64,000 nt of DNA from NCBI RefSeq assembly GCF_030384885.1, contig NZ_CP128613.1. One strand, given 5' to 3'. This stretch comes from Escherichia coli (GTDB taxonomy: Bacteria > Pseudomonadota > Gammaproteobacteria > Enterobacterales > Enterobacteriaceae). The notes below the pieces were generated by a model. It was not told where the DNA came from, did not search any database, and was given only the letters and a program-made list of their open reading frames with translations. Made by a program: the position numbers and the translations under genes. Every line of letters starts with the position of its first letter. Position 1 is the stretch's first letter. Positions 13,219-57,370 of the stretch are shown here, piece after piece.

Positions 13219-13446
13219 AAAATTCTCTTCGTTAAATTTGGTGACATGTGTCACGTTTTTACCTGGCTATTGTCGATTGCTCTAAATAAATCCTCTAATC
13301 CAGCATATTCATCCAAGAAAAACCTTTGCGTGATATTTCCTCAACATCGCGACGCAAACGTTCATATTGCCGCAATATTATTTTTTGATATGTTGAAAGG
13401 CGGATGCAAATCCGCACACAACATTTCAAAAGACAGGATTGGGTAA

Positions 13447-36484: not shown

Positions 36485-38002
36485 ATGTCTGAACAACACG
36501 CACAGGGCGCTGACGCGGTAGTCGATCTTAATAATGAGCTGAAAACGCGTCGTGAGAAGCTGGCGAACCTGCGTGAGCAGGGGATTGCCTTCCCGAACGA
36601 TTTCCGTCGCGATCATACCTCTGACCAATTGCACGCAGAATTCGACGGCAAAGAAAACGAAGAACTGGAAGCGCTGAACATCGAAGTTGCCGTTGCTGGC
36701 CGCATGATGACCCGTCGTATTATGGGTAAAGCCTCCTTCGTTACTCTGCAGGATGTCGGTGGTCGCATTCAGCTGTATGTGGCTCGTGACGATCTGCCGG
36801 AAGGTGTTTATAACGATCAATTCAAAAAATGGGATCTCGGCGATATCCTCGGCGCGAAAGGTAAACTGTTCAAAACCAAAACTGGCGAACTGTCGATCCA
36901 TTGCACCGAGCTGCGTCTGCTGACCAAAGCACTGCGTCCGCTGCCGGACAAATTCCACGGTTTGCAGGATCAGGAAGCGCGCTATCGTCAGCGTTATCTG
37001 GATCTCATTTCTAACGATGAATCCCGCAACACCTTTAAAGTGCGTTCGCAGATCCTCTCTGGCATTCGCCAGTTCATGGTGAATCGTGGCTTTATGGAAG
37101 TTGAAACGCCGATGATGCAGGTGATCCCAGGCGGCGCGGCGGCGCGTCCGTTTATCACCCATCACAATGCGCTGGATCTCGACATGTACCTGCGTATCGC
37201 GCCGGAACTGTACCTCAAGCGTCTGGTGGTTGGTGGCTTCGAGCGTGTATTCGAAATCAACCGTAACTTCCGTAACGAAGGTATCTCCGTACGTCATAAC
37301 CCAGAGTTCACCATGATGGAACTCTATATGGCTTACGCGGATTACAAAGATTTGATCGAGCTGACCGAATCGCTGTTCCGTACTCTGGCACAGGATATTC
37401 TCGGTAAGACCGAAGTGACCTACGGCGACGTGACGCTGGACTTCGGTAAACCGTTCGAAAAACTGACCATGCGTGAAGCGATCAAGAAATATCGCCCGGA
37501 AACCGACATGGCGGATCTGGACAACTTCGACTCTGCGAAAGCGATTGCTGAATCTATCGGCATCCACGTTGAGAAGAGCTGGGGTCTGGGCCGTATCGTT
37601 ACCGAGATCTTCGAAGAAGTGGCAGAAGCACATCTGATTCAGCCGACCTTCATTACTGAATATCCGGCAGAAGTTTCTCCGCTGGCGCGTCGTAATGACG
37701 TTAACCCGGAAATCACTGACCGCTTTGAGTTCTTCATTGGTGGTCGTGAAATCGGTAACGGTTTTAGCGAGCTGAATGACGCGGAAGATCAGGCGCAGCG
37801 CTTCCTGGATCAGGTTGCCGCGAAAGACGCAGGCGACGACGAAGCGATGTTCTACGACGAAGATTACGTCACCGCACTGGAACACGGCTTACCGCCGACA
37901 GCAGGTCTGGGAATTGGTATCGACCGTATGGTAATGCTGTTCACCAACAGCCATACCATCCGCGACGTTATTCTGTTCCCGGCGATGCGTCCGGTGAAAT
38001 AA
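36485..38002 (+). CDS. lysS: Lysyl-tRNA synthetase, constitutive (505 aa)
   Basis: Class II aaRS motifs; begins [33 protein letters not shown]; cotranscribed downstream of prfB. Confidence 0.96.
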
Positions 38003-38020
38003 GCATTACGTTATGCTCAC

Positions 38021-38048
38021 AACCCCGGCAAATGTCGGGGTTTTTTAT
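38021..38048 (+). terminator. Rho-independent terminator after lysS (overlaps the idi stop)
   Basis: CCCCGGCAAATGTCGGGG hairpin followed by TTTTTTATTT. Confidence 0.8.
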
Positions 38049-38593
38049 TTAAGCTGGGTAAATGCAGATAATCGTTTTCTGGCTTCGCGATTTGTCGCCT
38101 GCATCACCATCCACGGACTGAACGCCCACGGCGTGGCATCAATACCGCGTAAAACCGCTGCTAAATCACACCATTGATAATCCATCACTTCATCATCGTT
38201 GATCTGTAACGCACTGGTCGTGCGTGCGGCAAATACCGGACATACTTCATTTTCTACAATGCCATTCGGATCGGTGGCGCGGTAGCGAAAGTCAGGATAG
38301 ACCGGTTCTGGTGCTGTTATTTCCACACCCAGTTCAAAGCGGCAACGGCGGATCACCGCGTCTTCGTTGCTTTCGCCCAGTTGTGGGTGCCCACAAACCG
38401 AGTTAGTCCACACGCCCGGCCATGCTTTTTTGCTAAGGGCGCGGCGGGTAACTAATAATTGCCCTTTGGCATTAAACAGCCAGCAGGAGAACGCGAGATG
38501 TAAGAGAGTGTCTGCCGTGTGTGCGGCATACTTTTCCAGCGTACCCGTGGGAACTCCCTGTGCATTCAATAAAATGACGTGTTCCGTTTGCAT
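38045..38593 (-). CDS. idi: Isopentenyl-diphosphate delta-isomerase (Nudix-type, 182 aa)
   Basis: Begins [41 protein letters not shown]; conserved Cys/Glu active-site region. Confidence 0.93.
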
Positions 38594-38841
38594 AATTTCT
38601 CACATGTAATTCTAATCACTCATCATTATAGATAATTGAAGAGTGAAATGATTAACCAAGTGAGCGTTTATCGACAACCGCCCGTTTTGAGCGGATGTCG
38701 ACAGGTAAAACCATTTAAAAAAGCAGCATCATATATTTGAAGCGACTTTCAATGGCCATTGCAACACAGTCAGAAATGACAGGAATAGAGAGAGTAAAAA
38801 GCAACAACAGACTGAATATAGCGCGCATTAAAAGATTCATA

Positions 38842-40290
38842 TTATTCTCCATGCTCATTTTTCTTCAGCTTGCGCATCAGAAGCCACATACGTACTGTCC
38901 TGACTTTTAAATCTTTATCAGAGACGGATTCCTTCACCAGATCAGCATGATGCTGATAGCCATTAAAGAAGACGTTCAGCACAACGGCGCTAAGGGTTGC
39001 GAGCATAATGCCGCTATGCAGCAACGGTTGCAGTACGGCCGGTAACTTAGAAAAGAAATCGTGAGAAAGCGTCGGAGTCATGCCAACGCCGAGACTGATC
39101 GCCACAATATAGAGGTTGTAACGGTTAGTGGTGTAGTTACAGCGCGACAGAATTCGAATCCCCGTCGCCAGTACCATGCCGAACATCACCAGCCCTGCGC
39201 CGCCAAGCACAAATTGCGGAATCGAGGCTACCAGCACCGCCATTTTGGGCACCATGCCAAACATGATTAATATGATCCCCGAAGAAATACACACCCAGCG
39301 ACTATGAACGCGAGTCACGCTAACCAGGCCAACGTTTTGAGAAAATGACGTGTGGGGGAAGCTGTTAAACGTTCCGCCTAACATTGTCCCTACACCATCG
39401 ACACGCAGCCCGCGAATAATATCGTGCGAAGAGAGTTTACGACCGACTATTTCACCCAGTGCCAGGAACATCCCCATCGACTCGATAAACACGATGATTA
39501 ACACAGCGGTCATGGTTAGAATAGAAACGGGGTCAAATACCGGCATACCAAACGACATTGGGGTGACAATCGCAAACCACGAAGCATCATGTAGCCCGGA
39601 CAAATTGACTTCATTCATCATCCACGAAAGTAAAAAGCCAAATACAATCCCCAGTAATACGGCGACGTTGGACATAAATCCTTTCGCATAGCGAGTAATG
39701 AGCAAGATAAAAATTAAGACGGCAAAGGAGATACCTAAATAAACGGGATTACCATATTGCGGATTCCCTTTACCTCCAGCGGCCCAGTCAATACCGACCT
39801 GAATAATGCTAAGCCCGATAGAAGTAATAACCACACCGGTAACCAGTGGCGGGAATAAAGGCATTAAGCGACCGATAAGTGGTGCTAATAATGTGGTGAT
39901 AAATCCCGCGGCGATAGTGGCACCAAATATCCCCAGCAGGCCGATATCCGGGTTCATGCCAATGGCTATCATTGGTGTTACAGCAGCAAAGGTTACCGAC
40001 ATAATCACCGGCAGACGGATCCCCATAAAGCGGCCGATGCCGATACATTGTAATAATGTGACGATCCCGCAGCAAAAGAGATCCGAGCTAATGAGCATCG
40101 CAATAGCTTCTTTTGAGAGGCCCAGTCGGTCACCAATCATAAGAGGAACAGCGACTGCACCTGCGTACATTACAAGGACGTGTTGCAGACCGAGTATGAT
40201 CAGCTTTCCTGGTGATAATATGCGGTCAACCTCATCAGTTGGGCGGTCTTGCCCTTGAGATGAGGGAAGTTGGGAATCTATGGCGCTCAT
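38842..40290 (-). CDS. uacT: Uric acid/xanthine permease UacT (YgfU, NCS2/NAT family, 482 aa)
   Basis: NAT-family polytopic membrane protein; begins MSAIDSQLPSSQGQDRPTDEV; the track start at 40419 is extended. Confidence 0.88.
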   Translation of the reverse strand: MSAIDSQLPSSQGQDRPTDEVDRILSPGKLIILGLQHVLVMYAGAVAVPLMIGDRLGLSKEAIAMLISSDLFCCGIVTLLQCIGIGRFMGIRLPVIMSVTFAAVTPMIAIGMNPDIGLLGIFGATIAAGFITTLLAPLIGRLMPLFPPLVTGVVITSIGLSIIQVGIDWAAGGKGNPQYGNPVYLGISFAVLIFILLITRYAKGFMSNVAVLLGIVFGFLLSWMMNEVNLSGLHDASWFAIVTPMSFGMPVFDPVSILTMTAVLIIVFIESMGMFLALGEIVGRKLSSHDIIRGLRVDGVGTMLGGTFNSFPHTSFSQNVGLVSVTRVHSRWVCISSGIILIMFGMVPKMAVLVASIPQFVLGGAGLVMFGMVLATGIRILSRCNYTTNRYNLYIVAISLGVGMTPTLSHDFFSKLPAVLQPLLHSGIMLATLSAVVLNVFFNGYQHHADLVKESVSDKDLKVRTVRMWLLMRKLKKNEHGE

Positions 40291-40725
40291 CAGTGTTTCT
40301 CCTTTCGCCCGCCAGAGTAAAAAGCAACCGTTTACGTTATTGAAACTGTCTAAACATATGCTCGTGGAGTGCCAGTTTTTGCGAGGAAGGGGAGTTAGAG
40401 ACAGGAATTGCGGAGGCAATCACATAATCGTGGTTAAACCATGAAAATGAGAAGAGAACCTGACAATGGAATTATCTGTAATTTTCTCATATTGATATTT
40501 CATTAATCATTCTGGCATGTCGCACTCTCGCATTTAATCGTTTTTATCTGGATAGCGCTCTTTTGGTCGGCAATGTTGAAATAATGAAAGCGGCACAGAT
40601 TGAGGGGCAATAATTTGAACTCAGTCGCAAAATTATAATTAAAACGGTCATGCTACCTAATATATGCCCGTTTATTGCATCGCGAAATTTGAGAAGACAT
40701 AACTCATTAAATGAAAGGGATGCAA

Positions 40726-42645
40726 ATGAATAAGTTTATCGCTGCTGAAGCTGCGGAATGTATAGGCTGTCATGCTTGTGAAATTGCCTGTGCGGTGGCA
40801 CATAATCAAGAAAACTGGCCGCTGAGTCACAGTGACTTTCGACCGCGTATCCACGTTGTAGGGAAAGGCCAGGCTGCGAATCCGGTGGCCTGTCATCACT
40901 GCAACAATGCTCCTTGCGTTACGGCTTGTCCGGTTAATGCTCTGACTTTCCAGCCCGATAGCGTACAACTGGACGAGCAAAAATGTATTGGTTGTAAAAG
41001 ATGCGCAATCGCTTGCCCCTTTGGCGTCGTTGAGATGGTCGATACGATTGCGCAGAAATGCGACCTTTGTAACCAGCGCAGTTCCGGCACGCAAGCCTGT
41101 ATTGACGTATGCCCAACACAGGCGTTACGGCTGATGGACGATAAAGGGTTGCAGCAGATAAAGGTGGCCCGCCAGCGCAAAACGGCAGCAGGAAAAGCGT
41201 CATCAGACGCTCAGCCATCTCGCAGTGCAGCATTGCTCCCCGTTAACTCGCGTAAAGGCGCAGATAAAATTTCAGCGAGTGAACGGAAAACCCACTTTGG
41301 CGAAATTTATTGCGGGCTGGATCCACAACAAGCGACTTATGAGAGTGACCGCTGTGTTTATTGTGCCGAAAAAGCTAACTGCAACTGGCATTGCCCGCTG
41401 CATAACGCTATTCCGGATTACATCCGTCTGGTACATGAAGGAAAGATTATTGAAGCGGCAGAACTCTGCCACCAGACCAGCTCCTTACCAGAAATCTGCG
41501 GCAGGGTATGTCCACAGGACCGTCTTTGTGAAGGCGCATGTACTTTGAAAGATCACTCTGGCGCAGTCTCTATCGGTAATCTGGAGCGCTACATCACCGA
41601 TACTGCGTTGGCGATGGGCTGGCGTCCCGATGTCAGCATGGTAGTTCCCCGTATCGAAAAAGTGGCGGTGATTGGCGCTGGGCCTGCAGGATTAGGGTGT
41701 GCTGATATCCTGGCGCGCGCGGGAGTTCAGGTTGATGTCTTTGATCGCCATCCAGAAATTGGCGGTATGCTGACTTTTGGCATTCCTCCTTTCAAACTCG
41801 ATAAAACAGTCTTAAGCCAGCGGCGAGAGATATTCACCGCAATGGGAATCGACTTTCATCTTAACTGTGAAATTGGCCGCGATATTACCTTTAGCGATTT
41901 AACTTCTGAATATGATGCAGTTTTCATCGGCGTGGGGACTTACGGGATGATGCGAGCAGATCTGCCGCATGAAGATGCGCCCGGTGTCATTCAGGCTCTA
42001 CCGTTCCTGACTGCCCATACCCGCCAGTTGATGGGATTGCCGGAGTCTGAAGAGTATCCGCTGACGGATGTGGAAGGTAAGCGAGTCGTGGTATTGGGCG
42101 GTGGCGATACGACCATGGATTGTTTGCGTACCTCCATCCGCCTCAATGCTGCCAGCGTGACCTGCGCCTATCGTCGTGATGAAGTCAGTATGCCGGGCTC
42201 GCGTAAAGAGGTGGTCAATGCGCGCGAGGAAGGTGTCGAGTTTCAATTCAATGTTCAGCCGCAATATATCGCTTGTGACGAAGATGGGCGTTTAACTGCG
42301 GTGGGCCTTATTCGTACCGCTATGGGTGAGCCGGGTCCGGATGGACGCCGTCGTCCTCGTCCGGTAGCGGGTTCAGAGTTTGAGCTGCCTGCCGATGTTC
42401 TGATTATGGCCTTTGGTTTCCAGGCGCATGCCATGCCGTGGTTGCAAGGCAGCGGAATTAAGCTCGATAAATGGGGCCTGATTCAAACCGGGGACGTCGG
42501 GTATTTACCTACCCAGACGCACCTGAAAAAAGTCTTTGCTGGTGGGGATGCAGTTCATGGCGCGGATCTGGTTGTCACTGCAATGGCCGCAGGAAGGCAG
42601 GCGGCGCGCGATATGTTATCTCTGTTTGATTCGAAGGCATCGTGA
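40726..42645 (+). CDS. ygfT: Fused 4Fe-4S ferredoxin / GltD-like NAD(P)H-dependent oxidoreductase YgfT (639 aa)
   Basis: N-terminal CxxCxxCxxxCP clusters ([13 protein letters not shown]..., [12 protein letters not shown]) and a C-terminal pyridine-nucleotide disulfide-oxidoreductase fold ([14 protein letters not shown]). Confidence 0.88.
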
Positions 42646-43133
42646 TGAAATCGTTAATTATCGTTAATCCGGCTGATTGTATTGGCTGCCGTACTTGTGA
42701 AGTAGCCTGTGTGGTCGCTCACCTTTCAGAACAGGAGTTGAATGCCGATGTCTTTTTGCCTCGGCTGAAGGTACAGCGACTGGACAGCATCAGTGCGCCG
42801 GTGATGTGCCATCAGTGTGAAAACGCCCCTTGTGTCGGCGCTTGCCCCGTGCAGGCGCTGACGATGGGCGAGCAGGTGGTGCAGGCAAATTCTGCCCGTT
42901 GTATTGGCTGTCAGAGTTGCGTCAGTGCGTGTCCGTTTGGGATGATCACCATTCAGTCGTTGCCGGGGGATACCCGGCAACAAATTGTGAAATGCGATCT
43001 CTGTGAACAGCGGGAAGAGGGGTCTGCCTGCGTTGAATCTTGCCCGACACAGGCGCTGCAGTTGCTTACTGAAAGAGAACTCAGGCGAGTCCGCCAGCAG
43101 CGTATTGTTGCCAGCGGTGAGAATCCTCTCTGA
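42642..43133 (+). CDS. ygfS: 4Fe-4S ferredoxin-type protein YgfS (162-163 aa)
   Basis: Multiple Cys4 ferredoxin motifs ([24 protein letters not shown]); ATGA overlap with ygfT. Confidence 0.87.
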
Positions 43134-43137
43134 AAGA

Positions 43138-43165
43138 ATTCTCCGCGCTGAAAGGCGCGGAGAAT
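43138..43165. terminator. Bidirectional terminator hairpin between convergent ygfS and ghxQ
   Basis: ATTCTCCGCGC TGAAAG GCGCGGAGAAT perfect 11-bp stem. Confidence 0.65.
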
Positions 43166-43168
43166 CTA

Positions 43169-44536
43169 TTAGATAGCCCATCCACCCGCGTAAAATGCGA
43201 CCAGTGCGGCAGTAATGATTACCGTACCAATATTCAGCTTTTGCCATTCGCGTGCAAAGACGCGGCCTACGACCAGTGTCACAAAGCCCAGCATAATACC
43301 GGTAACGATATTACAAGTCAGAACGATAAACACGGCACACACCAGGCCAGCCATTGCGTCAATAAAATCGTTGAAATCCAGCTTCGAGACGTTACTTAAC
43401 ATCAGCAAACCTACGTACATCAGAGCGGGTGCAGTGGCGTAACCAGGGATCAAAAATGACAGTGGTGATAAAAACAGAATCAACAGGAATAACGCCCCCA
43501 CTACGGTTGCGGTCAACCCTGTTTTACCCCCGGCGGCGGTTCCTGCCGCTGATTCGATATAAACCGCTGCGGGCGCAGCACCCACCAGGCCGGAGAATAT
43601 TGAACTTACTGAGTCACTGGTCAGGGCTTTACCGCCGTTGATGATCTGGTTGTCTTTATCTAACAAATTCGCCTGACCGGCGACGGCACGGATGGTACCG
43701 GTGGCGTCGAACACTGCGGTCATCACCAATGCCAGTACACTCGGAAGTACAGTTGGCTGGAGTGCCCCCATAATATCGAGGCTGAAAATCAGAGACTTAC
43801 CATCTTCGCCAGTCAGACTGGGCATCGCCACCAGACCGTGGTACTTCACCGCTGGATCAAAGATTAAGCCGATGATCGAAATTGCAATAATCACCAACAA
43901 GATCCCGCCAGGTACGCGGCACTTTTCCAGACCGAAGATGACCGCCAGACCCAGTAAGCTCATCATCACCGGGAAGGAGGTAAACGCACCGAGCGCCACC
44001 GGCAAGCCTTCAATCGGGTTTTTGATAACCATTCCCACACCGTTAGCAGCAATCAGCAGCAGAAACAGGCCGATACCGATACCTGTGCCGTGAGCGATAC
44101 CCATCGGTAAATTACGTAATATCCAGGTTCGCACACCGGTTACAGAAATGGCGGTGAAGATGACGCCCATCAGAAAGACCGCACCCAGTGCGACAGGAAC
44201 GCTAATTTGTTGCCCGAGTACCAGACTGAATGCGGTAAATGCCGTTAAGGAAATAGCGCAACCAATCGCCATTGGCAAGTTGGCCCACAAGCCCATCAGC
44301 AACGAGCCGAAGCCCGCGACCAGACAGGTGGCAACAAACACAGCTGCGGGAGGAAAACCTGCTTTGCCCAGCATTCCCGGAACGACGATAACGGAATAAA
44401 CCATGGCCAGAAAGGTCGTTAAGCCAGCCAGTACTTCCTGACGAACGGTACTGCCACGAGCGGTAATTTTAAAATAATTATCCAGCGCGCCTTGTGGCTT
44501 TGGTGCGTCCGGTGTTTGTAGGATGTCTCCAGACAT
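43169..44536 (-). CDS. ghxQ: Guanine/hypoxanthine permease GhxQ (YgfQ, AzgA-like NCS2, 455 aa)
   Basis: AzgA-family membrane transporter sequence; synteny with guaD. Confidence 0.88.
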
Positions 44537-44571: not shown

Positions 44572-45891
44572 TTAGTTGCGTTCGTACACCAGACGACCAT
44601 CAACGTAGGTGCGGTAGATCGAACGGTCATCGCCCAACGTCATCATCACGAACAATTTGTCGACTAAAGAAACAGAGTTGTCATAGCGCAGCTGCTGTAG
44701 CGGGGTGGCGGTGGGTTCCATCACCACGAAATCAGCCTCTTTGCCAGGTAAAAAGTTGCCAATCAAATCGTCAAGGCCCAGAGATTTCGCCCCGCCGAGC
44801 GTGGCAAGGTAAAACGCTTCATATGCCGAGAGGCGATAGCCTTGTAATTGCAACACTTTGTAGGCTTCGTTCAGCGTTTGCAGCATGTTGAAAGTTGTTC
44901 CTGCGCCAATGTCAGTCCCCATGCCCACTTTGACTTTCTTCTGCCATGCTTTTTTCAAGTTGAATAAGCCACTGCCGAGGTAAAGGTTGGAGGTAGGACA
45001 GAAAGCAATGCTGGATTTGGTTTCGCTGAGACGATCCCACTCTTTCTCTTCGAGATGGACGCAGTGAGCAAAGACACAATTTTTACCTGTCAGACCGTAC
45101 TGATGGTAAACATCCAGATAACCATCATGGTCAGGATAAAGCGATTTGACCCAGGCAATTTCATCTTTATTTTCACAAAGATGGGTATGTACCCATGTGT
45201 CGGGATACTCTTCTTTCAGGCGTTGCGCCATCGCCATCTGTTCAGGAGATGAGGTTGGGGCGAAGCGTGGCGTAATCGCATACAACAGACGACCATTTTT
45301 GTGCCAGCGTTCGATCAGTTCTTTGCTTTGGTGATAGCTGCTTTCGGCAGTGTCGAGCAGATAATCCGGTGCGTTGCGGTCCATCATCACCTTACCGGCA
45401 ATCATACGCATATTGATATGACTGGCGGCTTCAAACAGCGCATCAACGGATTGCGGATGAACGGTACCAAACACCAACGCTGTGGTGGTTCCGTTACGTA
45501 AAAGCTGCTTGATGAAGAACGCCGACATTTCGCGGGCGTACTCTAAATCCTCATAACGACGTTCAGTAGGGAAGGTGTGTTTATTCAACCACTCCAACAA
45601 TTGTTCACCATAGGCCCCAACCATTTCACTTTGCGGATAATGGATATGTGTATCGACAAAGCCCGGTACTACCAGTTTGCCGCGATAGTCGCGCACGCGA
45701 ATGGTGTCAGGAATTTGATGCTTTCCGTCTTCCCATTCGCCAAACCATTCCACTTTTCCCTGTTTAATGAGTAATAAACCATCCTCAATAAACCGCAGCG
45801 CAGAGGCAATCTCTTCCGGGTTATCGACCGTACGGGTGACATCAATAAAACTGCCTCGTACCGCTTTTAACGTGTGTTCTCCTGACATCAT
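44572..45891 (-). CDS. guaD: Guanine deaminase (amidohydrolase, 439 aa)
   Basis: Begins MMSGEHTLKAVRGSFIDV; metal-binding HxH (FVDTHIHYPQ); the track start at 46011 is extended. Confidence 0.92.
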   Translation of the reverse strand: MMSGEHTLKAVRGSFIDVTRTVDNPEEIASALRFIEDGLLLIKQGKVEWFGEWEDGKHQIPDTIRVRDYRGKLVVPGFVDTHIHYPQSEMVGAYGEQLLEWLNKHTFPTERRYEDLEYAREMSAFFIKQLLRNGTTTALVFGTVHPQSVDALFEAASHINMRMIAGKVMMDRNAPDYLLDTAESSYHQSKELIERWHKNGRLLYAITPRFAPTSSPEQMAMAQRLKEEYPDTWVHTHLCENKDEIAWVKSLYPDHDGYLDVYHQYGLTGKNCVFAHCVHLEEKEWDRLSETKSSIAFCPTSNLYLGSGLFNLKKAWQKKVKVGMGTDIGAGTTFNMLQTLNEAYKVLQLQGYRLSAYEAFYLATLGGAKSLGLDDLIGNFLPGKEADFVVMEPTATPLQQLRYDNSVSLVDKLFVMMTLGDDRSIYRTYVDGRLVYERN

Positions 45892-47470: not shown

Positions 47471-50341
47471 TTATATTTTTTCCAGCGCGGTGAGTATTTT
47501 CTCCGGTGTGAAATGCCATTCGCGTAACCAGATGCCGCAGGCATCGTGAATTGCGGTAGCAATCGCCGGAGCTGCGCCATTTACACCGATTTCTGAGATT
47601 GATTTCGCCCCGAATGGGCCGACTTTATCGTCGCTCGGCACCAGCACAGCGCGGAAATCACGCGGAATGTCACCAATTTTCGGTGCGCCGTAACTGCGTA
47701 AATCACGCGTTAACGGGTGGCCTTCGGCGTCATAAATGATTTCTTCGCTCATACTGTGCCCGATAGCACGCAGGGTGGCTCCGTAGATTTGTCCCAACGC
47801 TAACTCTGGATTGACCGGTGTACCACAGTCCAGCAAGGCATAGAATTTATCCAGGCGGATTTCACCCGTACGTGTGTTGACGGCAACTTCAGCAAAGTTT
47901 GCGCCATACGGGAAGGCGAAATCAGGCGTGATATAACTGGCAGTTCCCACCAGTGAACCAAAACCGGTGCCGGTTTCGCCTTTATGGGCAATATCCCCGA
48001 AACTAACTTCGCCTTTCTTGCCGCGCACGACGCCCGGCGTTGCCAGTTGAACATCCTCCAGGGGTTCCCCCAGCATTTGTGCACCGTGGAACAGGATTTT
48101 CTCTCGGAGGTTTTCTGCCGCCATACGCGCCGCGTTGCCGGAGAAACATGTACCGGACGAGGCATATGCGCCTTTATCAAACAGCGCATGATCGGTATCA
48201 CCGGAGATAACATGCACGTCCTGCGGTGGGCAGTGCAGCACTTCTGCTGCCAGTTTCGTCACCACGGTATCCAGACCAGTACCAATATCCGCACCGCCAG
48301 AATGAACGATAAAGGTACCGTCTGATTCCAGTTTGATCATGCAGTTAGCCTGATCGATATCCGGGATCCCTGATTTCTGCATGATAATGGCGACGCCACG
48401 ACCGATGTGCCAGTCACCGTTTTGTGGTTTTGGTGAAGACCATTGGATCATCTCGCGACCCTGACGCAGGATCTCTTCCAGTGCGCAGCTGGCGGCGGAA
48501 GGAACGGAGGTCGGCGCTTTACCTTCACCGATTGCACCGAGAATTTTCAGCTCTTGCCCTTCGTGTACCCGGTTACGTTCGATAATTTCCAGTTGGTCGA
48601 TCTGTAACTGTTCAGCCAGTTCCGCTAATGCCATGGTGATAGCGAAGTTACCTTTCGGTGCGCCATAACCCTGATAAGCACCATTTGGGCAAATGTTGCT
48701 GTAGTAGGTGGTGACCTGGAAATCGACGTTATCGCACGGATATAACGGCAGCGACAGCGCCGGTCCGTTACACGGTACGGTGAGTGAGTGGTTGCCGTAA
48801 GGGCCTGTGTTGGCGCGGAAATCCATCTTCACAGCCGTCAGGCGACCATCTTTCTTTGCCCCCAGTTTGACGGTGACTTTCGCGACGTGACGGGAGGTGT
48901 TAGCAATAAACTCTTCTTCACGGGTGTAGCGGAACAGTACCGGACGCCCGGTCACGCAGGTTGCCCAAGCGCACACTTCTTCCAGCAGGATGTCCTGTTT
49001 AGACCCAAAACCGCCGCCAACTCGCTCTTTAATGACATGAACTTTATGTTGTTTCATGCCCACGAGGCGCGCGACCTGGCGGCGTAAGTGCCATGGTACC
49101 TGGGTGGAGGCGTGGATAACCAGACGATCGCCGTCCATACGGGTAAAGCAGATATGAGTTTCAGTCGGGCACTGCTGCGCCTGAGTTGAGTTATAGGTTC
49201 GCTCAATGATCACATCGGCATCGGCAAAGCCTTTATCCATATCGCCAATATGACCATGAATACTGGCGGCGATATTTTTACGAGGGCGAGAACCGATAGG
49301 GAAGTTGATAATCATATGCTCGCCGCGCTGGGCTGCATGGCTGTTATCGTCTTCCAGAGTGTCTGGCGCACCCGCCACATACACCACCGGTTCATCGTGT
49401 ACGACAGGCGCATCTTCCGCCATTGCTTCGTCGATCGACATTACAGGTTTAAGCACTTCATATTCAACGTCGATGAGCTTCAGTGCTTCGAGCGCAATTT
49501 CTTCACTTTCTGCGACGACCGCAGCAACGCGATCGCCGACGTGACGCATTTTCTTGCCGAACATACGGCGGTCAAGCGGTGACGGTTCCGGTGCGCTCTG
49601 ACCACCCGGGGTATAGTAGATATCCGGGCAATTCAGGTGAGTAATAACGTGAACGACGCCCGGTAAGGCTTCAGCTTTGCTGACATCCAGATGAGTAATC
49701 AGTGCGTGAGCGTGTGGGCTACGTAACATTTTAATGACGCAGGCGTCAGCCGTTACGCGGTCTTCAACATAGCAGGGTTTCGCCTGCACCATTTTTGCGG
49801 CATCAGTTTTAGGATAATGCTTACCAATGACTTCAAGGTCATCGCGGAAAGTCGGAGCGATATCAATGGTGGCCTGCGGGTTATTTTTACGTGCAATTGC
49901 CAGTTCAACGACCTGATAGTATTGTTGCCAGCCTGCATCGCGACTGAACAAACCAGAAAGCGCGTCGTCGATCTCTTCGCGGGTCGGTGCGGCGATACGC
50001 TCGAGCAGATCAGTGATAATCAGAGCCGCAGCTGGATCGTTATAACCAGACTGCACCACGCCAACATCAACCATGGCCTGTTGAACCAGACTTAACTCAT
50101 TCCATTTGCCCAGAGATTCTGCGGTACGAATATCTGCCTTCTCTAACTGTGCGGCAATAAGCAAGGACGCGTTAACGATATTACCGTTAAAGATTATTGC
50201 GTCAGAACCGGCAAACCCGAAGCCATCATCACTGTTGCGTACAGAGTGCATTCCCATGTTAAACAACAGCTTTTGCACGTTTTCGCCTGGATTAACGGTT
50301 AGCTCCTGAGGCGCGCCATTTAAAGTAAAGTGGATGATCAT
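47471..50341 (-). CDS. xdhD: Molybdopterin-binding xanthine-dehydrogenase-family hydroxylase XdhD (956 aa)
   Basis: N-terminal 2Fe-2S-like region plus aldehyde-oxidase/xanthine-dehydrogenase Mo-binding domains; ATGA overlap with ygfM. Confidence 0.9.
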   Translation of the reverse strand: MIIHFTLNGAPQELTVNPGENVQKLLFNMGMHSVRNSDDGFGFAGSDAIIFNGNIVNASLLIAAQLEKADIRTAESLGKWNELSLVQQAMVDVGVVQSGYNDPAAALIITDLLERIAAPTREEIDDALSGLFSRDAGWQQYYQVVELAIARKNNPQATIDIAPTFRDDLEVIGKHYPKTDAAKMVQAKPCYVEDRVTADACVIKMLRSPHAHALITHLDVSKAEALPGVVHVITHLNCPDIYYTPGGQSAPEPSPLDRRMFGKKMRHVGDRVAAVVAESEEIALEALKLIDVEYEVLKPVMSIDEAMAEDAPVVHDEPVVYVAGAPDTLEDDNSHAAQRGEHMIINFPIGSRPRKNIAASIHGHIGDMDKGFADADVIIERTYNSTQAQQCPTETHICFTRMDGDRLVIHASTQVPWHLRRQVARLVGMKQHKVHVIKERVGGGFGSKQDILLEEVCAWATCVTGRPVLFRYTREEEFIANTSRHVAKVTVKLGAKKDGRLTAVKMDFRANTGPYGNHSLTVPCNGPALSLPLYPCDNVDFQVTTYYSNICPNGAYQGYGAPKGNFAITMALAELAEQLQIDQLEIIERNRVHEGQELKILGAIGEGKAPTSVPSAASCALEEILRQGREMIQWSSPKPQNGDWHIGRGVAIIMQKSGIPDIDQANCMIKLESDGTFIVHSGGADIGTGLDTVVTKLAAEVLHCPPQDVHVISGDTDHALFDKGAYASSGTCFSGNAARMAAENLREKILFHGAQMLGEPLEDVQLATPGVVRGKKGEVSFGDIAHKGETGTGFGSLVGTASYITPDFAFPYGANFAEVAVNTRTGEIRLDKFYALLDCGTPVNPELALGQIYGATLRAIGHSMSEEIIYDAEGHPLTRDLRSYGAPKIGDIPRDFRAVLVPSDDKVGPFGAKSISEIGVNGAAPAIATAIHDACGIWLREWHFTPEKILTALEKI

Positions 50342-51167: not shown

Positions 51168-52496
51168 TTATGCCAGCGCATCCATCCGACGCCACATAGC
51201 AGCGGCGGCTTTTTGGGCTTGCGCATAAATGGAATCGCAATCGAAGTTAAACTGACGGTCTTCATAGACCATAACGCCGTTGACCATCACGCTGTGGACG
51301 CTGCCTGAACCCATGCCGAAAGCGATATGTCCAGCGATATTGTCTGCCAGCAGTGGCGTCGGCGAGTTGTAATCGCAAATGGTTAAATCGGCTTTATAAC
51401 CGGTTTCCAGCAGGCCAAATTTCGCGCCAAAGTTGCGGCTCATCAGTTCGTTGCCGTTAGACAGAGCTTTGGCAAAGCTGTCAGGCCACAGCGGACCACC
51501 CGCATCGCGATGTTTAAAGAAGGCAAATTTCATCTCTTCAAACATATCTGAACCAATACCGTCCGTACCCAACGCCAGATTGCGGATGTCGCAAAGATGA
51601 TGGTTGTAGCCGACATGGTTGTTCATGTTTGAACGGGCGTTATGCACCAGGAATGCATCACGCTGATTGAGCAACGCGATGTCGTCTTTAGACAGATAAA
51701 GCCCATGAGCGACCAGCGTTTTGCTGTCGATGAGATCGAATTGCGCTAATCGTGCCAGCAGATCTTTGCCGTACCAGTGATGACTATGGGAAACATCGTA
51801 AAGGTCTTCCGCAGCGTGAATATGTAAACCACGGCCTGTGGCTTTCACGGCCTCACGCAGCATTTCCAGACCGGCATCCGGCACAGTAAACGGCGCGTGA
51901 GCACCAATATGAGCTTCTACCAGATACGGTTCAGTTGCCGCTTTCTTCGCATCATCAATCTGACGGGCGAAGCGGATATTTTCCTCTACTCCTTCCTGTA
52001 GTTCTTTAATGCCGTTGTTACGGTCAGTGGTTTCAAAACAGGTCATCGCACGCAAGCCAACTTTTAAAAATGCGTTGCGCAATGTGGAGAGCGACCCGCT
52101 GATATACGCCGGAGAGGCATGGTGATCGATAACAGATGTACAGCCGCTCTTAATCGCTTCCAGTGAACAAATCAGCCCGCTGTAATAGAGCGACTCTTCA
52201 TCAAGGGCGCGATCGAGCCGCCACCAGAGATTTTTCAGCGTTGAAATGAAATCCGGGCAGGGGGCGATGTTTGCCATAATTCCACGGGAAAGCCCCGAGT
52301 AAAAATGGTTGTGCGAGCAGACAATTCCCGGCATCACAATCCGACCATGCATCTCTTTGTAGTTGGCATCGGGGTAGCGTTGCGTCAGCGCATCGCCGAT
52401 AGCGACAATCACATCATTTTCGATGGCGATATCAACGCCTTCCTGCACTTTCGCCGGGTGTAACTGCACTGCGGTGACATTCTTCAGAATCAACAT
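51168..52496 (-). CDS. ssnA: Putative aminohydrolase SsnA (chlorohydrolase/cytosine-deaminase-like, 442 aa)
   Basis: Amidohydrolase metal-binding motif (GIVCSHNHFYS...) and fold. Confidence 0.88.
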   Translation of the reverse strand: MLILKNVTAVQLHPAKVQEGVDIAIENDVIVAIGDALTQRYPDANYKEMHGRIVMPGIVCSHNHFYSGLSRGIMANIAPCPDFISTLKNLWWRLDRALDEESLYYSGLICSLEAIKSGCTSVIDHHASPAYISGSLSTLRNAFLKVGLRAMTCFETTDRNNGIKELQEGVEENIRFARQIDDAKKAATEPYLVEAHIGAHAPFTVPDAGLEMLREAVKATGRGLHIHAAEDLYDVSHSHHWYGKDLLARLAQFDLIDSKTLVAHGLYLSKDDIALLNQRDAFLVHNARSNMNNHVGYNHHLCDIRNLALGTDGIGSDMFEEMKFAFFKHRDAGGPLWPDSFAKALSNGNELMSRNFGAKFGLLETGYKADLTICDYNSPTPLLADNIAGHIAFGMGSGSVHSVMVNGVMVYEDRQFNFDCDSIYAQAQKAAAAMWRRMDALA

Positions 52497-55597: not shown

Positions 55598-55918
55598 AAC
55601 CCTCTCCTTAGCTTATACAGATATCATTGAATGACCGGTGTTGAGAAATCCGGTGGTTTACGGGGATAGAGCAACAATCGCACCACTCTTGCCAGGTTTA
55701 GTGGGAAATATAAAAAAATGTGAGGCGGCTCGAAACTTAAGGGCTTTTTGTGAATGAACTCACAGGTGCCAAATGAGAATTAAAATCACTCCTGAAAATT
55801 ATTATTACCAGCCCATTTATCACTTTTTCTCTTTTCTCAAAATCAGTGATTCCTTATCATAATGATAAAGAAGGCTGGATGGTTTAAATATTTGAACGCA
55901 AACGTTTAACTACGTTTT

Positions 55919-56599: not shown

Positions 56600-57370
56600 G
56601 TGAAAAGTATAGTTGACCCATCGGCATTATTCATTGATTTAGGCGCGCAGAAACGTCCCACTGTGATTTCTGTTGTTGGGGCTGGGGGGAAAACCAGCTT
56701 GCTTTTTTGGCTGGCAGAACTGCTCCAGGCTAGCGGCAGGCGAGTGTTAATCACTACGACGACACATATGTTTATGCCAACGTCTCACTGGCCCGTGGTT
56801 TTCTGTCGTGATCCCGCCATGCTTCCTCATGCGTCTCTTACATCCCCCATTTCATTTTGTTTTCACAGCTGGAAAGCGAACCAGGGAAAAGTGCAGGGAT
56901 TTATGCCAGAAGCGATTGATGCACTGGTGCAACGACCAGAGTGTGACGTAATTCTCATTGAGGCAGATGGCTCGCGTGGAATGCCGTTAAAAGCGCCTGA
57001 TGAGCACGAACCTTGCATACCCAAAAGCAGTTGCTGCGTGATTGCTGTGATGGGAGGACATATTTTGGGTGCGAAAGTGAGCACAGAAAATGTCCATCGC
57101 TGGTCGCAGTTTGCTGATATTACCGGGTTAACACCTGATGCAACCTTGCAACTGAGCGATCTCGTTGCGCTGGTTCGCCACCCTCAGGGCGCATTTAAAA
57201 ACGTACCGCAAGGTTGTCGGCGAGTCTGGTTCATTAACCGTTTTTCTCAATGTGAGAATGCGATTGCGCAAAGCGAGCTCCTTCAACCGCTGCAACAACA
57301 CGACGTAGAGGCAATCTGGCTGGGCGATATACAAGAACATCCTGCAATCGCGCGCAGATTTGTGAATTAG
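56600..57370 (+). CDS. yqeC: YqeC, marker protein of selenium-dependent molybdenum hydroxylase loci (256 aa)
   Basis: P-loop-like VVGAGGKTS; pairs with yqeB. Confidence 0.85.
   Translation: MKSIVDPSALFIDLGAQKRPTVISVVGAGGKTSLLFWLAELLQASGRRVLITTTTHMFMPTSHWPVVFCRDPAMLPHASLTSPISFCFHSWKANQGKVQGFMPEAIDALVQRPECDVILIEADGSRGMPLKAPDEHEPCIPKSSCCVIAVMGGHILGAKVSTENVHRWSQFADITGLTPDATLQLSDLVALVRHPQGAFKNVPQGCRRVWFINRFSQCENAIAQSELLQPLQQHDVEAIWLGDIQEHPAIARRFVN

Follow-up and report, generated by a model that had tools for sequence, protein, structure and literature searches.

A predicted bidirectional sigma-54 control region between uacT and ygfT-ygfS in the urate regulon of Escherichia coli

How might a urate importer and an Fe-S/flavin oxidoreductase, encoded on opposite strands, be expressed together from the one intergenic region that lies between their genes? 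In the window, a 64,000-nucleotide stretch of Escherichia coli chromosomal DNA, the coding sequence of the urate:H+ symporter uacT (ygfU; 38842..40290, minus strand) is divergent from ygfT (uacF; 40726..42645, plus strand) and ygfS (42645..43133, plus strand). The first-pass annotation had recognised these genes and their divergent layout, and we confirm its coordinates and gene calls. The locus is the known uacT/ygfT-ygfS urate-utilisation locus of E. coli, whose genes and regulators have been described before; the spacer is ordinary in kind, lies in an annotated and partly characterised locus and represents no novel element class. The new part is the map of elements within the spacer, and that map is a prediction. 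The work of Iwadate and Kato (2019), reportedly the primary uacR/uacF paper, may already define or contradict the predicted sites. Our reading, which we regard as reasonably probable, is that the spacer belongs to the E. coli urate (UacR/YgeV) regulon and controls sigma-54 transcription in both directions.

The uacT DNA is 100% identical to a record in which RefSeq annotates uacT, and the protein matches TIGR03173 (509 bits) and PF00860 (Xan_ur_permease; 413 bits), which places it in the NCS2 xanthine/urate permease family. Translation starts at the complement of 40288-40290, and a ribosome-binding site, AAGGAGA (40298..40304, minus strand), lies 8-14 nt 5' of the ATG; the corresponding TCTCCTT run is invariant in seven species. 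YgfT joins a HydN-like 4Fe-4S domain to a GltD-like Fe-S/FAD/NAD(P)H domain, with matches to Fer4_11, Fer4_20 and Pyr_redox_2, and aligns over residues 1-639 of 639 to the NCBIfam equivalog NF009451 (formate-dependent uric acid utilization protein) with 1495 bits against a cutoff of 1154. The start at 40726 is favoured over an in-frame ATG at 40711 because an AAGGGA Shine-Dalgarno sequence stands 5 nt before it and RefSeq annotates it. RefSeq annotation and profile matches identify ygfS as a HydN-like 4Fe-4S dicluster ferredoxin. The ygfT TGA and the ygfS ATG share one nucleotide (TGATG), an overlap that suggests translational coupling.

AegA, the paralogue of YgfT, has the same domain layout (YgfT scores 950 bits against the AegA model), and published work shows that both are required for formate-dependent urate degradation. 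Unlike ygfT, aegA maps to another part of the chromosome, and its induction by urate is reported to be only modest, whereas ygfT has its own equivalog model and is a member of the urate cluster, where ygfS is its partner. The first-pass annotation had put forward a possible electron supply from YgfT/YgfS to the nearby molybdo-hydroxylase, which is not supported in its direct form. We see an even chance that YgfT-YgfS, instead of donating electrons directly to XdhD, acts as a module that makes NAD(P)H from formate and so restores the reductant used by XdhD-YgfM and YgfK; electrons would then pass from FdhF through the HydN-like Fe-S chain to the GltD-like flavin. The joining of HydN-like and GltD-like domains in YgfT speaks for such a module, as does the grouping of YgfS and YgfT with the FDH-H-interacting paralogues HydN/YsaA. 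Moreover, purified XdhD-YgfM was reported to reduce urate in vitro with NADH alone, and a route from formate dehydrogenase through AegA/YgfT to NADP+ or urate has been proposed in print. However, the paralogue AegA was published as neither interacting with FdhF nor affecting FDH-H activity, and XdhD may instead receive electrons directly, through an Fe-S wire to its 2Fe-2S clusters. In Citrobacter sp. R56 ygfS is missing while the rest of the cluster is kept, so ygfS, at least, is dispensable there.

The spacer itself, 40291-40725, is exactly 435 bp long, and its AT-richness is as described earlier: GC is 0.391 (39%) against 0.515 (51.5%) for the window, and only 1.1% of 435-bp windows are equally AT-rich. 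The length was also called unusual, which stands only in a relative sense, as the remaining divergent sigma-54 regions in the cluster measure 478 bp (ygeV-ygeW) and 415 bp (xdhA-actS). The segment is 100% identical to that of E. coli 2013C-4282 and was found in 5330 of 5426 complete E. coli genomes; the K-12 spacer is likewise 435 bp and differs at five positions. An Rfam scan of 38000-44000 at a permissive threshold left the spacer without a match even at E values up to 1, and a terminator scan gave none.

The uacT/ygfT-ygfS arrangement is kept in Escherichia species and in two Citrobacter. Footprinting used a spacer alignment of seven species, Escherichia and Citrobacter relatives. A protein search with YgeV returned only E. 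coli sequences of 99-100% identity, and the chromosome of Citrobacter sp. R56 was used for comparison instead; the window is about 60% identical to R56. Across the seven species 49% of the spacer columns are invariant. Seven invariant runs of at least 6 nt occur, and all seven coincide with elements proposed here. A triple TTG-N3-4-GGCAAT repeat seen by eye was dropped, as the alignment shows no conservation of it.

A GG at -24 defines the sigma-54 promoter class. The known ygfT-ygfS promoter, TATGCCCGTTTATTGCA (40663..40679, plus strand; predicted start near 40690), lies within the longest invariant run (19 nt); its -12 element, TTGCA, is perfect, its -24 element reads TG and not GG, and its score with the position weight matrix (PWM) is -0.45 bits. 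It is identical to motif OS32, a sigma-54 ChIP-seq peak of low enrichment upstream of ygfT (PMC4591121). On the other strand we predict a uacT promoter, CTGGCACTCCACGAGCA (40359..40375, minus strand; start near 40348). This candidate reads CTGGCAC-TCCAC-GAGCA, with GG at -24, GC at -12 and the canonical ten-base spacing between them, and is invariant in the seven species except for two positions that follow TGGCA. It is weak by PWM, with 7.2 bits and an A in place of the near-universal T at -14, against a background of 112 sites of at least 6 bits in 150 kb of scanned strand. The sigma-54 ChIP-seq study reports no peak at this candidate (PMC4591121). A further sigma-54-like CTGGCAT at 40512 was rejected; it lacks GC at the right spacing and is unconserved in Citrobacter R56.

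Alternatively, sigma-54 and UacR could control ygfT-ygfS only, with uacT transcribed from an unrecognised sigma-70 promoter, perhaps CRP-dependent, and the conserved block at 40358-40379 serving as another factor's site or as a leader element. We judge this unlikely. The low PWM score and the missing ChIP-seq peak at the uacT site would agree with it, and a CRP-like site near -70 also fits a class I sigma-70 promoter. However, a sigma-70 scan of the spacer found no promoter where 1.4 were expected by chance. The only -10-like hexamer, TATGTT, was rejected as a uacT -10 because it is destroyed in K-12 and the other species, whereas CTGGCA and GAGCAT are invariant. Furthermore, the distance from the CRP-like site to the -24/-12 elements is that of other sigma-54 promoters of the regulon, and uacT co-varies with sigma-54 genes in the iModulon.

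The middle of the spacer holds a dyad, TTCTCATATTGATA (40484..40497; also given as TCTCATATTGATA), at -142.5 from the predicted uacT start and -199.5 from the predicted ygfT start. The dyad is invariant in the seven-species alignment and recurs 5' of xdhA, ygeW and ygfK; the ygfK copy is a perfect palindrome. It is the best k-mer common to the four control regions, with two mismatches in total against a minimum of five in shuffled controls, and its exact 12-mer occurs three times in 75 kb, each time 5' of a regulon sigma-54 promoter. In Citrobacter R56, where overall identity is 57-70%, it is kept at all four loci. The regulon dyads lie at -130 to -234 from the predicted starts, which is the usual range for an enhancer-binding protein. 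The element is symmetric, about 100-250 bp upstream, regulon-wide and conserved, as an enhancer (UAS) should be, and recurrence together with conservation suggests that it is probably the enhancer site of UacR (YgeV). A text search of the literature for the dyad sequence found no relevant paper. The second conserved half of the central block, TTAATCATTCTGGCA (40503..40517), contains the invariant run TTAATCATT. It may be a second, weaker dyad at a distance of 20 bp, and it reads AATCA-N3-TGGCA by eye; upstream of xdhA two dyads stand 21 bp apart.

We give rather little credence to the proposal that IHF, a Fur-like protein or some other regulator, and not UacR, binds the dyad in its regulon-wide form TTMTCAYAWTGATW. 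The dyad is AT-rich and contains TATCAA, the IHF core WATCAA, and PWM matches of 16-17 bits also fall within guaD and yqeC. The ygfK copy presumably resembles a Fur box, ATAATGATAA, with partial overlap with the Fur-box consensus, which would count for the same proposal. However, the dyad lacks the TTR part of the IHF consensus, and the spacer holds no IHF match apart from a chance one in the PurR box; positions of -130 to -234 suit an enhancer and not a bend site. Two loci carry identical 15-mers and four loci of a single regulon conserve the dyad, which points to a specific regulator, and YgeV is the only known regulator dedicated to these genes.

A shared control region is consistent with published expression data. 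Expression of ygfT is lower in a ygeV mutant, urate strongly induces ygfT, and uacF-ygfS has been described as a urate-induced operon. The YgeV iModulon includes both ygfT and uacT, and the conserved spacer elements are placed to serve both directions, which supports the earlier suggestion of shared regulation. In addition, glucose represses urate degradation, and a Crp site has been reported at ygeV-ygeW.

Two CRP-like sites flank the dyad, each with two mismatches to TGTGA-N6-TCACA and each centred at -68.5 from a predicted start: TGCGGAGGCAATCACA (40409..40424) for uacT and TTTGAACTCAGTCGCA (40614..40629) for ygfT. In the uacT site the half-sites are conserved and the sequence between them is variable. 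The ygfT site keeps TTTGA-N6-TCRCA in all seven species and has a single mismatch in three. Matches of this quality are common by chance (37 found in the window against 27 expected); the position, however, is shared by uacT, ygfT, xdhA and ygfK. Four of five promoters have the site at -67.5 or -68.5, and the fifth has it at -77.5.

Searches for FNR and PurR motifs had been proposed by the first-pass annotation. No FNR site (TTGAT-N4-ATCAA) was found in 40291-40725 with up to two mismatches. The PurR search yielded a near-consensus 16-mer, ACGTAAACGGTTGCTT (minus-strand reading; 40322..40337), which covers nucleotides +12 to +27 of the transcript predicted for uacT. It departs by one mismatch from both published forms of the PurR consensus, fits the 16-bp palindrome ACGNAAACGTTTGCNT with one mismatch and lies within a 16-nt run that is invariant in seven species. 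PurR ChIP-chip regions have been reported for ygfT-ygfS and ygfK (PMC3159470); the former corresponds to 40428-41464 of the window and stops 91 bp short of the box. The motif assigned to it (Table 1 of the same paper), GGGCAAGCGATTGCGC (minus-strand reading; 41003..41018), lies inside ygfT; we confirmed its sequence in the window, where it has four mismatches to the classical PurR consensus. Other members of the PurR ChIP-chip regulon, xanP, yjcD/ghxP, yieG and tsx, resemble uacT in having a near-consensus 16-bp box beside an NCS2-family transporter gene; unlike them, the ChIP region here carries the ygfT-ygfS label, and the box in the uacT leader is a predicted one. For IHF, WATCAANNNNTTR has no exact match in the spacer, and its sole one-mismatch match, inside the PurR box, is ascribed to chance. 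Consensus scans of the spacer for NarL, NtrC, Nac and ArcA gave nothing credible. A PhoB site mapped by ChIP and ascribed to ygfU/ygfT falls 234 bp inside uacT, with unchanged expression, and is irrelevant to the spacer. The sigma-54 promoters, the probable UacR enhancer, the CRP-like sites and the PurR box thus supply predicted regulator sites for a region in which none could previously be assigned by eye.

The same set of elements recurs in the sister control regions. Upstream of xdhA, ygeV-ygeW and ygfK, as in the spacer, the dyad at -130 to -234 accompanies a sigma-54 promoter, and a CRP or CRP-like site lies between about -68 and -98; PurR boxes are present at ygfK and ygeW. The ygfK region (55670..55911, minus strand) comprises a sigma-54 site (55670-55686, minus strand), a CRP-like site (55719-55734), a perfect CRP site (55749-55764), the dyad (55854-55868) and a PurR box (55896-55911), and all of its elements are conserved in Citrobacter R56. 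A PurR-like box just 5' of the xdhA -24 element was set aside, as it is unconserved in Citrobacter. The spacer differs from its sisters in that a single enhancer apparently serves two promoters and in that the PurR box lies downstream, not upstream, of the uacT promoter.

Beyond this regulon, zraP/zraSR (with ZraR) and hycA/hypA (with FhlA) each combine one intergenic enhancer and a dedicated activator with two sigma-54 promoters. The spacer is predicted to share with them an outward-facing sigma-54 promoter pair, and both loci appear as divergent sigma-54 sites in a ChIP-seq table (PMC4591121). In contrast to these systems, the promoters of the spacer are weak or non-canonical (no GG at -24 for ygfT, A at -14 for uacT), both the uacT promoter and the UacR site are predicted, and CRP-like sites stand where IHF usually sits.

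That the spacer is simply a long, H-NS-prone, AT-rich intergenic region whose two units are expressed independently seems very improbable, for its low GC and the low expression of the cluster in standard laboratory conditions, where iModulon activity rarely leaves the reference, would fit, but seven discrete invariant blocks in an otherwise diverged spacer, motifs common to the regulon and published co-expression do not.

Taken together, the bidirectional reading would operate as follows. UacR would bind the central dyad, probably helped by the adjacent conserved half-site, and by DNA looping would reach sigma-54 RNA polymerase at two outward-facing promoters, the known ygfT-ygfS promoter (40663-40679) and the candidate uacT promoter (40359-40375). 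The CRP-like sites at -68.5, one at each promoter, probably supply a DNA bend and would explain glucose repression. Repression by hypoxanthine or guanine would be added through a PurR operator in the uacT leader. The cell would then produce the urate importer along with YgfT-YgfS, a formate-linked Fe-S/flavin oxidoreductase, if urate is present and better carbon or purine sources are absent.

We further hypothesize, more tentatively, that one UacR enhancer in mid-spacer fires two divergent sub-consensus sigma-54 promoters and that a regulon-wide CRP site near -68 (at uacT, ygfT, xdhA and ygfK, with a 9-bp offset at ygeW) replaces IHF in an architectural role. If this is true, sigma-54 transcription would come directly under catabolite control and the PurR boxes would act as a purine veto, giving a three-input logic (urate AND cAMP AND NOT hypoxanthine/guanine) over a pathway that bears on host urate levels.

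Gut bacteria lower host urate by an anaerobic uricolytic pathway, and the cluster is its counterpart in E. coli. The cluster is being engineered into probiotics for gout, with promoter replacement to bypass native regulation. A site-level map of the spacer would account for the silence of the pathway under most laboratory and glucose-rich conditions, would yield defined targets for de-repression, and would offer an operator consensus that can be tested for the poorly characterised activator UacR/YgeV.

The first-pass annotation described uacT and ygfT-ygfS as divergent units around an AT-rich control region, and the coordinates, base composition and family matches agree with this. RefSeq names uacT (38842-40290, minus strand; NCS2 permease family match), ygfT (40726-42645, plus strand; 'formate-dependent uric acid utilization protein'; NF009451 match, 1495 bits) and ygfS (42645-43133, plus strand), the ATG of ygfS overlapping the TGA of ygfT by one base. 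The spacer between them (40291-40725) is exactly 435 bp long. Its GC content is 39.1%, against 51.5% in the window as a whole; of 435-bp segments, just 1.1% are equally AT-rich. It had also been called unusually long; the 435 bp stand, but this length is typical of the cluster's divergent control regions (ygeV-ygeW, 478 bp; xdhA-actS, 415 bp). The DNA is E. coli chromosome: 40100-40900 matches strain 2013C-4282 at 100% identity, and this segment was found in 5330 of 5426 complete E. coli genomes.

Two further observations concern the gene ends. Five codons ahead of the annotated start of ygfT there is an in-frame ATG (40711-40728), GTG in one Citrobacter, from which the frame stays open in all seven species compared; the Shine-Dalgarno position favours the start at 40726 over that at 40711. 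One nucleotide past the uacT stop begins yqfG (38715-38840, minus strand), a 41-aa hydrophobic ORF kept in Citrobacter sp. R56 (L016 7970-8095; MNLLMRAIFSLLLLF... versus MHILLRCILSVLLLM...), which may encode a small membrane protein that partners the transporter UacT.

Earlier publications already cover the locus, its part in urate utilisation and the main regulators (sigma-54, YgeV/UacR and PurR). Sigma-54 ChIP-seq revealed a weak peak, OS32, upstream of ygfT (PMC4591121), whose motif TATGCCCGTTTATTGCA lies at 40663-40679. Urate strongly induces ygfT, ygfT expression is reduced in a ygeV mutant (cited in the YgeV iModulon literature), and uacT is co-expressed with sigma-54 genes of the urate regulon. 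Formate-dependent urate degradation requires aegA, ygfT (uacF) and ygeV (uacR); urate degradation is repressed by glucose, and a Crp site has been described between ygeV and ygeW. PurR ChIP-chip labelled bound regions ygfK-ssnA and ygfT-ygfS (PMC3159470). Using two published motifs as anchors, we placed the latter region at 40428-41464, with the PurR motif assigned in that study at 41003-41018, within ygfT.

Four other Escherichia lineages and two Citrobacter species share the divergent arrangement, with a spacer of 435-455 bp. Aligning all seven leaves 49% of spacer columns without variation; the spacers of the window and of Citrobacter sp. R56 are about 60% identical. Within the spacer we tabulated seven invariant runs of 6 nt or more (plus strand): TCTCCTT at 40298-40304 (uacT ribosome-binding site), AAAAGCAACCGTTTAC at 40320-40335 (PurR box), ATGCTCGTGG at 40358-40367 and TGCCAGTTTT at 40370-40379 (-12 and -24 sides of a uacT sigma-54 candidate), AATCACATAAT at 40418-40428 (CRP-like half-site), TTTCTCATATTGATA at 40483-40497 (central dyad) and TTAATCATT at 40503-40511 (second half of the central block). 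At 40662-40680 the known ygfT sigma-54 site, ATATGCCCGTTTATTGCAT, forms the longest run of all. Since each of these matches an element, every invariant run is assignable.

The candidate uacT sigma-54 promoter (CTGGCACTCCACGAGCA, 40375-40359, minus strand) pairs a perfect -24 element with a correctly spaced GC and varies across species only at the two positions after TGGCA. Judged from sequence alone, the case for it is not strong. A matrix built from 15 unrelated sigma-54 promoters scores it at 7.2 bits, with 112 sites of at least 6 bits in 150 kb of scanned strand; position -14 is A where T is nearly universal; and no sigma-54 ChIP-seq peak is reported there (PMC4591121). The accepted ygfT site, with TG instead of GG at -24, scores -0.45 bits, below the uacT candidate, so matrix scores are a poor guide within this regulon. 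The candidate is backed by block conservation together with a scan of the spacer that detected no sigma-70-type promoter, by co-expression and by a matching upstream architecture.

The promoter blocks 40353-40372 and 40659-40678 are 75% identical direct repeats (common ATGCYCGT-N5-TGC), a similarity that may come simply from the sigma-54 consensus being pseudo-symmetric, or else point to an additional shared factor. Elsewhere the matrix strongly matched CTGGCACGATTAGCGCA (16.9 bits, 51742-51758, minus strand) inside ssnA, sense and upstream of ygfM-xdhD, and ATGGCGCAAACTTTGCT (15.0 bits, 47891-47907, minus strand) inside xdhD, sense and upstream of xanQ. The main text of the ChIP-seq study (PMC4591121) mentions neither; they may be promoters internal to these genes or matches arising by chance.

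The central dyad links the spacer to the rest of the regulon. The exact 12-mer TATCAATATGAG has three copies in about 75 kb, at 40486-40497 and upstream of ygeW and xdhA, and the ygfK upstream region carries the perfect palindrome TATCATAATGATA (55855-55867). When the k-mer best common to the four control regions was sought without bias, the dyad motif emerged, with 2 total mismatches at k=12 and 4 at k=14, versus minima of 5 and 7 in 40 shuffles. We walked the Citrobacter sp. R56 chromosome by three exact-protein look-ups and aligned the sequences upstream of ygfK, ygeW and xdhA with their E. coli counterparts; at 57-70% overall identity, every one keeps its dyad, and xdhA keeps both of its tandem copies. 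The dyads give the consensus TTMTCAYAWTGATW, built on the core ATCA-N3-TGAT. Measured from the predicted starts, they are centred at -131.5 and -152.5 (xdhA), -142.5 (uacT), -199.5 (ygfT), -202 (ygfK) and -233.5 (ygeW), distances that suit an enhancer and not a bend site. The dyad is probably a UacR enhancer: its most likely binder is YgeV/UacR, since no other known activator is dedicated to these genes. A literature search, whose reach excluded the primary uacR paper, found no publication with the motif. Outside the training sites, the next-best dyad-matrix matches were TACGCATATTGATAT (17.3 bits, 45405-45419) inside guaD and TTCTCACATTGAGAA (16.1 bits, 57244-57258) within yqeC, some 160 bp ahead of yqeB.

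Divergent sigma-54 pairs around a shared enhancer are a known kind, as in zraP/zraSR and hyc/hyp. The spacer resembles these, its shared enhancer being predicted.

With promoters anchored on the -12 GC and mismatches counted to TGTGA-N6-TCACA, CRP-like sites are centred at -68.5 for uacT and ygfT and -67.5 for xdhA and ygfK (2 mismatches each), and at -77.5 for ygeW (1 mismatch); ygfK has a second, perfect site at -97.5. Chance alone makes two-mismatch sites frequent (37 in the window versus 27 expected), but the fixed position of these sites and the half-sites kept in Citrobacter speak for a function. They also lend independent support to the uacT promoter call. A consensus scan of the spacer found no IHF site, so CRP may supply the bend; such a role would fit the reported glucose repression.

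Of the motifs that the first-pass annotation proposed to search for, FNR gave no consensus site in the spacer, and PurR gave a near-consensus box at 40322-40337 (ACGTAAACGGTTGCTT; one mismatch), invariant across species. This candidate operator sits 91 bp outside the reported ChIP region and would fall at +12 to +27 of the predicted uacT transcript. PurR boxes at ygfK, where the box is ChIP-confirmed, and ygeW are kept in Citrobacter. The ygfK control region (55670-55911, minus strand), a full paralogous set, combines a sigma-54 site, the CRP-like site at -67.5, the perfect CRP site at -97.5, the palindromic dyad TTATCATAATGATAA and a PurR box, all kept in Citrobacter sp. R56. About 27 kb from the spacer, two PurR-box-like matches with 2 mismatches each (13316-13367) may be the published gcvT PurR region.

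Family searches showed that in YgfT a HydN-like ferredoxin domain with four clusters is joined to a GltD-like Fe-S/FAD/NAD(P)H domain, and that YgfS is a HydN-like ferredoxin on its own. The two proteins fall among the HydN/YsaA paralogues, which are linked to formate dehydrogenase H. As XdhD-YgfM uses NADH to reduce urate to 2,8-dioxopurine, the simplest model has YgfT-YgfS passing electrons from formate to NAD(P)H, or possibly straight into the pathway. A direct wire to XdhD, in line with the electron supply to the nearby molybdo-hydroxylase that the first-pass annotation suggested, is hypothetical. Citrobacter sp. R56 lacks ygfS (L016 10001-13339): ghxQ directly follows ygfT, and the remaining urate cluster is syntenic with E. 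coli. YgfS is therefore not an obligatory partner of YgfT.

Taken together, what is new is a conserved, regulon-wide map of predicted cis-elements: the probable UacR dyad, the candidate uacT promoter, the CRP-like sites near -68 and the PurR box in the uacT leader.
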